From Escherichia coli (lineage in GTDB: Bacteria > Pseudomonadota > Gammaproteobacteria > Enterobacterales > Enterobacteriaceae), in the NCBI RefSeq assembly GCF_003019035.1, contig NZ_CP027447.1: a stretch of 64,000 nucleotides of DNA; one strand, given 5' to 3'. Under the pieces are notes generated by a model. The model ran no database searches. It was not told the origin of the DNA and worked only from the letters and a program-made list of their open reading frames with translations. A program made the position numbers and the translations under genes. This document shows, one piece after another, positions 62,282 through 62,635 of the stretch; position 1 is the stretch's first letter; every line of letters begins with the position of its first letter.

Positions 62282-62635
62282 ATTGTTCAGTCTCTTATTA
62301 TCTTTATATGCTTGATATACTTAAGGTTGTAATAAGCAAAAGAGGACTGAACTGTAAAATATAGGCGTTATACTTTACAGCAACAGTACGCCGCTAACGC
62401 AATTGCTACCTCTGGCATAACAAGTATATCGGGTAAGGGTTTCTGTTCCGCACACGCAGGCGCAGAATATCGTTAAGATGTCCATATTGTTGTTTTAGGC
62501 CCGCTAGTAATGCGCTACGGGTATTTAATATTGTTAAACCCTGATAATCGCTCCGGTTATTTCCGGGATAAATGTACTACCGCAGTTACTATCATAGCCC
62601 CGACAATAAAACTTGCCGGGGCTTTTTTGACGCTA

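Follow-up and report, generated by a model that had tools for sequence, protein, structure and literature searches.

The spacer between the glcB and glcA genes of Escherichia coli contains a GC-rich hairpin that is interpreted here, with moderate confidence, as a two-faced element of the bidirectional type. On the minus strand, which encodes both genes, it is the 3'-end hairpin of glcB, and on the plus strand it would probably be a terminator of antisense transcription. The hairpin is accompanied by minus-strand RNA 3' ends at its foot, is conserved in four genera, and has accumulated substitutions that preserve pairing in the sense RNA only. The experimental support concerns the minus face alone. 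The hairpin is real, functional, and ordinary; it is already included in public 3'-end catalogs and lies beside a cataloged candidate small RNA.

Genomic Context of the Hairpin

The analyzed stretch of E. coli DNA (64,000 nucleotides, herein referred to as the window) ends inside the glc gene cluster. Many complete E. coli genomes match positions 62200-62720 at 100% identity and likewise have this segment between glcA and glcB. The features of the region are listed in Table 1. The location of both genes on the minus strand, noted in the original prediction, was borne out by the gene calls and by alignment with E. coli K-12 MG1655. The spacer has the same length in K-12, with two substitutions, and NC_000913.3 coordinates correspond to window coordinates plus 3,058,998, the offset taken from this alignment. 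A truncated glcB gene (a 430-aa ORF) was rejected as an artifact of the window edge, the frame being open up to position 64000. In the literature, glcDEFGBA is treated as a single operon; in one study, the response of glcD to LldR overexpression was larger than that of glcA (PMC10272880).

Table 1. Features of the glcB-glcA region (window coordinates).
Feature	Position	Strand	Basis or remark
glcA (glycolate permease, 560 aa)	60599-62281	-	Gene call
glcA start codon	62279-62281	-	Gene call and alignment
glcB-glcA spacer, 354 nt	62282-62635		Within the glcDEFGBA operon
C0719 RNA (Rfam RF00117)	62360-62581	+	Covariance-model match, 297.6 bits, model positions 1-222
Mapped 3' ends of glcB-containing mRNA	62589-62596	-	Term-seq (peak 62592) and TRS
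glc-sense stem-loop, 11 bp including one G.U	62596-62623	-	Folding and conservation
Plus-strand face of the hairpin	62597-62622	+	Six GC pairs, A.C mismatch, three pairs; folding
T6 run	62623-62628	+	Abuts the stem on its 3' side; reads as A6 ahead of the stem in the glc-sense direction
glcB (malate synthase G) stop codon TAA	62636-62638	-	Gene runs past the window edge

Between two E. coli lineages, 7 of the 354 spacer positions differ, vs. 43 of 561 third codon positions of glcA. Thus, the spacer evolves about four times more slowly than these codon positions, which points to further constrained elements within it. Folding of the whole spacer with the hairpin excluded did not tell the two strands apart (z-scores -1.58 against -1.16), and an earlier apparent folding advantage of the minus strand was mostly due to the hairpin itself and to a length effect.

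Three other elements were observed in the spacer. The first is located in the glcA leader on the minus strand, where GUUCAGUCCUCUU is able to pair with AAGAGACUGAAC (62285-62296 with 62340-62352). This pairing covers the presumed Shine-Dalgarno region of glcA, just upstream of the AUG at 62281, and judging from the sequence such a helix could possibly mask translation; its upstream partner has no obvious conservation in Klebsiella/Raoultella or Citrobacter. The second is a hairpin at 62353-62379 (UGUAAAGUAUA-ACGCC-UAUAUUUUACA), which forms a perfect 11-bp stem, with G.U pairing, on the minus strand and a mismatched one on the plus strand. Its strand asymmetry resembles that of the glcB hairpin, and the 5' end annotated for C0719 falls within it. 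The third is a small ORF on the minus strand (62375-62485; MDILTIFCACVCG..., 36 aa), shared by E. coli and E. albertii. Klebsiella/Raoultella (L087, around 2318) keep the first 12 codons, as MDILISFCAFVC followed by a stop codon, and Citrobacter freundii has lost the ATG. This ORF is without a clear Shine-Dalgarno sequence, and the block of the spacer in which it sits (ATGGACATCTTAA...TCTGCGC...GTGTGC) is the best conserved one.

Structure and Occurrence of the Hairpin

Read on the plus strand, the hairpin consists of A62596, GCCCCG (62597-62602), A62603, CAA (62604-62606), the loop TAAAAC (62607-62612), TTG (62613-62615), C62616, CGGGGC (62617-62622), and the T-run, after which GACG follows. 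The core stem is formed by the two GC-rich hexamers and is extended at its foot by A62596/T62623 and towards the 6-nt loop by CAA/TTG. In the plus-strand RNA, the six GC pairs and the three inner pairs are separated by a 1x1 A.C internal loop (A62603.C62616); this RNA has a predicted energy of -15.2 kcal/mol (z = -4.3), and none of 200 shuffled sequences folded as well. In the minus-strand RNA, the A.C mismatch is turned into a G.U pair and the stem is uninterrupted. The 5' arm AGCCCCGGCAA (62623 to 62613), the loop GUUUUA (62612 to 62607), and the 3' arm UUGUCGGGGCU (62606 to 62596) together with the flank reach -21.6 kcal/mol (z = -4.8), and the 200 shuffles again contained no equal. The glcB stop codon precedes the start of the hairpin by 12 nt.

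In total, three hairpins with an energy of -14 or lower abutting a run of at least six T were found on both strands of the window, vs. 0.49 +/- 0.65 in 200 dinucleotide shuffles. Terminator-like hairpins are therefore about sixfold more frequent than in shuffled sequences, and only about 0.003 would be expected in the 354-bp spacer. The fold and these shuffle counts confirm the plus-strand terminator shape from which the original prediction started. An automated terminator scan passed over this hairpin solely through its loop and mismatch rule.

Across 4541 E. coli genomes, the 48-nt segment containing the hairpin has a median of one place per genome. A repeated palindrome of the REP/BIME type was therefore rejected. 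The segment is identical in 2676 genomes and has one or two differing positions in 1854. Polymorphisms include a T-run of T6 or T7, the latter in many strains, and an A-to-T change in the loop at 62611 (L084); among the sequences read, no changes of the stem within E. coli were found. In strains PEC408 (L082, 1874-3047) and 2013C-3277 (L083, 992-3239), other DNA takes the place of glcA and of some or all of the spacer. One of these strains has an IS5-like ISKpn26 element right at the hairpin edge, beside a type II Zorya system, and the other has a cptA/traT-remnant island; the glcB-adjacent hairpin is kept in both strains. In the assembly of run SRR12001894 (L084, 1621-3793), glcB was called as two overlapping ORFs of 311 and 430 aa, which suggests a frameshift or an assembly error.

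Mapped 3' Ends at the Foot of the Stem

Two independent studies place minus-strand 3' ends at the hairpin. By Term-seq in LB at OD600 2.0, a 3' end was mapped to position 3121590 on the minus strand of NC_000913.3; it is listed as the "primary" end of glcB and as lying "antisense" to C0719 (Adams, 2021, supplementary file 1; PMC7815308). The sequence tabulated for it is ...AAAAAAGCCCCGGCAAGTTTTATTGTCGGGGCTATGA followed by TAGTAACTGC; the 3' end in this table is base 51 of 61, a layout checked on sgrS. The mapped base is an A, located five nt after the stem. By RNAtag-seq, the TRS study found a minus-strand terminus at 3121587-3121594 in two tables, annotated as "Alternative primary in TU, glcB" with Signal values of 0.95 and 1.0 (PMC10687069). 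These values resemble those of well-known strong terminators in the same file, and the interval corresponds to +1 to +8 after the stem. The original prediction assigned the hairpin to the plus strand, opposite to both flanking genes, whereas the direct evidence of RNA ends lies on the minus strand.

On the plus strand, no 3' end was found in the U-run (31216xx) in the tables of Adams (2021), covering LB at OD 0.4, LB at OD 2.0, and M63, or in those of the TRS study. Absence of a plus-strand transcript ending here in strand-specific data was what the original prediction named as its refutation, and this is what these datasets contain, though they are without glycolate-induced cells or conditions chosen for C0719. 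Tables from SMRT-Cappable-seq have nothing for the locus of the glcB-glcA spacer.

The way in which the minus-strand ends arise can be read in two ways. The position of the stem shortly after the stop codon and of the 3' ends 5-8 nt further on, where 5-9 nt would be expected, agree with an intrinsic terminator on this strand. The 3' flank of the stem, UAUGAUAG, has no U-run (3 U in 8), which upholds the earlier remark that the minus-strand version is without a downstream T-run, and with the U-tract missing true termination on the minus face is no more than a possibility. As a variant, polymerases would read through the hairpin into the spacer or glcA, the transcript would be ended by Rho or cut by RNase E, and 3'-to-5' exonucleases would trim it back to the stem, which would act as a stability barrier. 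We regard this variant as a real possibility, somewhat short of an even chance. It would account for the U-poor flank, for the spread of TRS ends from +1 to +8 around the Term-seq peak at +5, and for the inclusion of glcA in the glcDEFGBA operon, since some polymerases must then pass the hairpin; 3' ends of Rho-dependent transcripts are the subject of the study by Dar and Sorek (2018; PMC6061677). However, the dominant TRS position at +7/+8 is equally expected from intrinsic termination, and the Rho-dependent terminators tabulated by Adams (2021) include neither glcB nor glcA, though that table comes from exponential growth in LB, a condition with hardly any glc expression (PMC7815308).

Conservation of the Hairpin in Enterobacteriaceae

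Adjacent glcB and glcA genes with a long spacer (353-415 nt) were also found in E. albertii (L086), Klebsiella/Raoultella (L087, L088, and L091-L094), and C. freundii (L089). These enteric relatives were found with full-length GlcA as the query. A protein search with the C-terminus of GlcB gave mostly fragments, with an identity gap between 97 and 75%, and in a comparison of the same C-terminus with genome contigs the relatives among the matches listed were at most 74% identical, belonging to Pseudomonadales and Burkholderiales and not to Enterobacteriaceae. A metagenome scan with the glcA-leader pattern of Klebsiella/Citrobacter returned 0 matches, and one locus with a GlcA-like permease without an upstream glcB (L090) had no homologous spacer. 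No relatives of GlcB/GlcA at 90-97% identity were observed outside Escherichia; after those at about 88%, Pseudomonas-type proteins follow at about 75-80%. There are hints that the enteric glc cluster is patchy and was possibly spread horizontally.

The neighborhood of the conserved hairpin varies. The gene downstream of glcA is yghJ/sslE in Escherichia (a 1527-aa ORF, window 55550-60133), a malic-enzyme gene in Klebsiella/Raoultella (L087/L088, 4289-5533), and a gene with the AP-endonuclease-2 fold on the opposite strand in C. freundii (L089, 4470-5252). In Klebsiella/Raoultella, about 45-65 extra nt separate the glcB stop codon from the hairpin, and this stretch contains a perfect palindrome of 16 nt, GCGCCATCGATGGCGC, immediately ahead of the A-run (L087, about 2133-2148). 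Behind the conserved hairpin lies another small one (CUGCAGAUAAUGCGG).

Most of the spacer cannot be aligned between genera, and the hairpin is present downstream of glcB in all of the compared groups. Its alignment has 30 columns and seven distinct sequences, Escherichia being one pair short on both arms (a paired indel). In the glc-sense reading of these seven sequences, standard pairs fill 96.3% of the pair cells, and the only non-pairs concern the loop-closing pair. In the antisense reading, 89.9% are standard, with 8 unpaired cells across five internal pairs. Pair 2 is G-C, G.U, or A-U depending on the lineage, which amounts to one two-sided change, and a paired insertion is found at pair 3. 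Five independent internal one-sided substitutions (8 cells) are all G.U in the sense RNA and a C.A mismatch in the antisense RNA: at pair 9 in E. coli, pair 11 in Klebsiella/Raoultella, pair 7 in C. freundii, and pairs 2 and 8 in Raoultella sp. BIGb0138/Klebsiella sp. This asymmetry of five to zero modestly favors a helix kept for the sense RNA (one-sided sign test, about 0.03). It is consistent in direction with the folding energies, which range across lineages from -21.1 to -32.0 kcal/mol for the sense and from -15.2 to -26.1 kcal/mol for the antisense hairpin; the sense energy is equal or lower in almost all lineages, e.g., -25.1 against -15.3 in Raoultella sp. A shuffle control for covariation was not significant with seven distinct sequences (148/500), so the strand asymmetry of the wobble pairs was relied on instead. 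The covariation analysis called for by the original prediction thus indicates a helix maintained for the glc-sense RNA, though not at the level of the shuffle control.

Two other explanations lose most of their ground on this evidence. The hairpin would, according to one, be exclusively a plus-strand terminator for C0719 or another antisense RNA, with a functionless minus face. The canonical stem with U6 and the position of C0719 immediately upstream on the plus strand speak for this, but minus-strand 3' ends at the stem were found in both studies, the helix is upheld by G.U pairs that exist only in minus-strand RNA, and the hairpin follows glcB in genera without a C0719 match. We consider it very improbable. 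The other, a chance palindrome or an evolutionary relic that is functionless today, has nothing in its favor beyond the absence of a dedicated functional study. The z-scores on both strands and the enrichment over shuffles, together with the mapped RNA ends and a conservation across four genera that includes a compensatory change and a paired insertion, make it barely credible, and the idea of a relic, put forward earlier as one option, is contradicted by the same observations.

C0719 and the Plus-Strand Face

C0719 is the only annotated plus-strand transcript able to read into the hairpin. Its model match ends 15-16 nt before the stem (62581 vs. 62596/62597), so that the hairpin lies outside the family model. 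The model matches E. albertii at 272.7 bits and, at E <= 1, has no match in Klebsiella/Raoultella or Citrobacter. Since the hairpin is kept where the model finds nothing, the hairpin is older and more conserved than the body of C0719.

C0719 reportedly stems from oligonucleotide arrays of 2002. It is absent from the current RefSeq annotation of NC_000913.3. Its overexpression gave no phenotype, its read counts are low and rise in the transition and stationary phases, and its loss varies between lineages of E. coli and Shigella. There is poor support for the function of C0719 and even for C0719 being a discrete RNA. Promoter-like sites facing the hairpin were found near glcA (TGaTATACT in Escherichia, TATAAT in Klebsiella/Raoultella), but these are weak and no better than chance in AT-rich DNA.

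The plus-strand face has a conserved feature of its own. On the sense strand, an A-run of 5-7 nt located 5' of the stem is uninterrupted in all lineages from four genera, and its outer flank is unrelated between lineages (TAGCGTC, GGCGCAAT, and GACGCAGT). The sense 3' flank is never U-rich, reading UAYURYAG in the other genera. The lower six pairs, beside the U-run, are intact in the antisense RNA of every lineage except the L092/L094 type (Raoultella sp./Klebsiella sp.), whose antisense stem has three A.C mismatches, one of them in the second pair from the U-run. On the sense strand, an A-run 5' of a stem has no established role. Its retention in all lineages would follow from a canonical antisense terminator.

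These observations bear on a reading in which the hairpin acts in the sense direction alone, as a stem that forms the 3' end of the glc mRNA or blocks exonucleases, the A-run being kept for a sense function or by chance and C0719 being an array artifact or noise. Every direct 3'-end datum is on the minus strand, the internal wobble substitutions fit the sense RNA alone, and the hairpin persists outside Escherichia without the C0719 body. The removal of C0719 from the current K-12 annotation points the same way, and the rise of C0719 in the transition and stationary phases, seen in RNA-seq not confirmed to be strand-specific, coincides with the glcB 3' end at OD 2.0. Nevertheless, this reading leaves the uninterrupted A/T run abutting the stem in four genera, despite an unrelated flank, without an established sense role, and the plus-strand geometry is canonical. 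We therefore view it as possible but doubtful.

On this sequence evidence, the plus face of the two-faced element is probably a terminator of convergent antisense transcription. Against this stand the missing plus-strand 3' ends in the tables of Adams (2021) and of the TRS study and the nature of C0719 as an array-derived, weakly expressed RNA whose body is confined to Escherichia. The suggestion that the hairpin ends an antisense or small RNA hence stands as far as C0719 adjoins it on the plus strand and lacks a matching 3' end in Term-seq and TRS.

Comparison with Known Systems

Overlapping bidirectional terminators are said to have been described in E. coli by SEnd-seq in the work of Ju et al. 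from 2019. The glcB hairpin resembles them, and intrinsic terminators in general, in being a GC-rich stem-loop at a gene end with U6 directly 3' on one strand. As in bidirectional terminators, it has a gene on one side and an annotated RNA converging from the other, and the mapped sense and predicted antisense 3' ends would overlap by about 37 nt. Unlike them, it has a U-run on one side only, which is the side without a mapped end, the mapped side being UAUGAUAG, and it lies inside an operon, not at an operon end. Flanking A- and U-tracts serving both directions are therefore not found; the plus strand reads CTATCATA-stem-TTTTTT, with a U-run for one direction only. Of the convergent 3' ends expected at such an element, that on the minus strand is documented in the Term-seq and TRS tables. 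As a canonical plus-strand terminator, the hairpin has the stem and the U-run and is without a mapped 3' end in the U-run under the conditions covered by the Term-seq and TRS tables.

Intercistronic hairpins that stabilize mRNA, such as the malE-malF REP and that of Rhodobacter puf, bring about differential expression within operons. The glcB hairpin shares with these a stable stem between two cistrons of an operon, with 3' ends piling up at its foot, and it parts upstream enzyme genes from a downstream gene for a membrane protein. Unlike the malE-malF REP, it is single-copy, and a stability difference between glcDEFGB and glcA is a prediction, at which the larger response of glcD to LldR overexpression only hints. 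With C0719 (RF00117), the hairpin shares the spacer and the strand on which it looks terminator-like. It differs in lying outside the model match and in being kept in Klebsiella/Raoultella and Citrobacter.

Proposed Function and Significance

In the proposed mechanism for the two-faced element, a stable stem-loop forms in the glcDEFGB(A) transcript 12 nt past the glcB stop codon, and most of the detected transcripts end 5-8 nt beyond it. The 3' end would result from intrinsic termination of a weak, U-poor kind or from 3' exonucleases halted at the stem. The outcome would be a stable glcDEFGB message, with the permease gene glcA uncoupled from it and expressed at a lower level or under separate control. 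The plus-strand face, with its GC stem and U6, would stop convergent antisense transcription (that of C0719 in Escherichia) before it enters glcB, as its predicted structure suggests.

A bolder proposal, which we hold to be unlikely, is that the whole spacer is a conserved device for convergent transcription, in which an antisense RNA starting near the ribosome-binding site of glcA and ending at the shared hairpin sets the ratio of glcB to glcA expression. The antisense RNA would be C0719 in Escherichia and an unannotated counterpart in Klebsiella/Raoultella and Citrobacter, and the ratio would be set by antisense transcription or by RNA polymerase collision at the two-faced terminator.

The importance of the finding beyond annotation hygiene is limited. 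What looks like a terminator on the wrong strand can prove by experiment to be the 3'-end hairpin that the neighboring gene uses, even if no U-tract follows it, and strand assignment from shape only can mislead. If C0719 is real, a plausible 3' end for it lies about 47 nt past the annotated one. Maps of the glc operon should preferably show glcDEFGB, the hairpin, and glcA in place of a single uniform unit, a point of relevance for the engineering of glycolate pathways.
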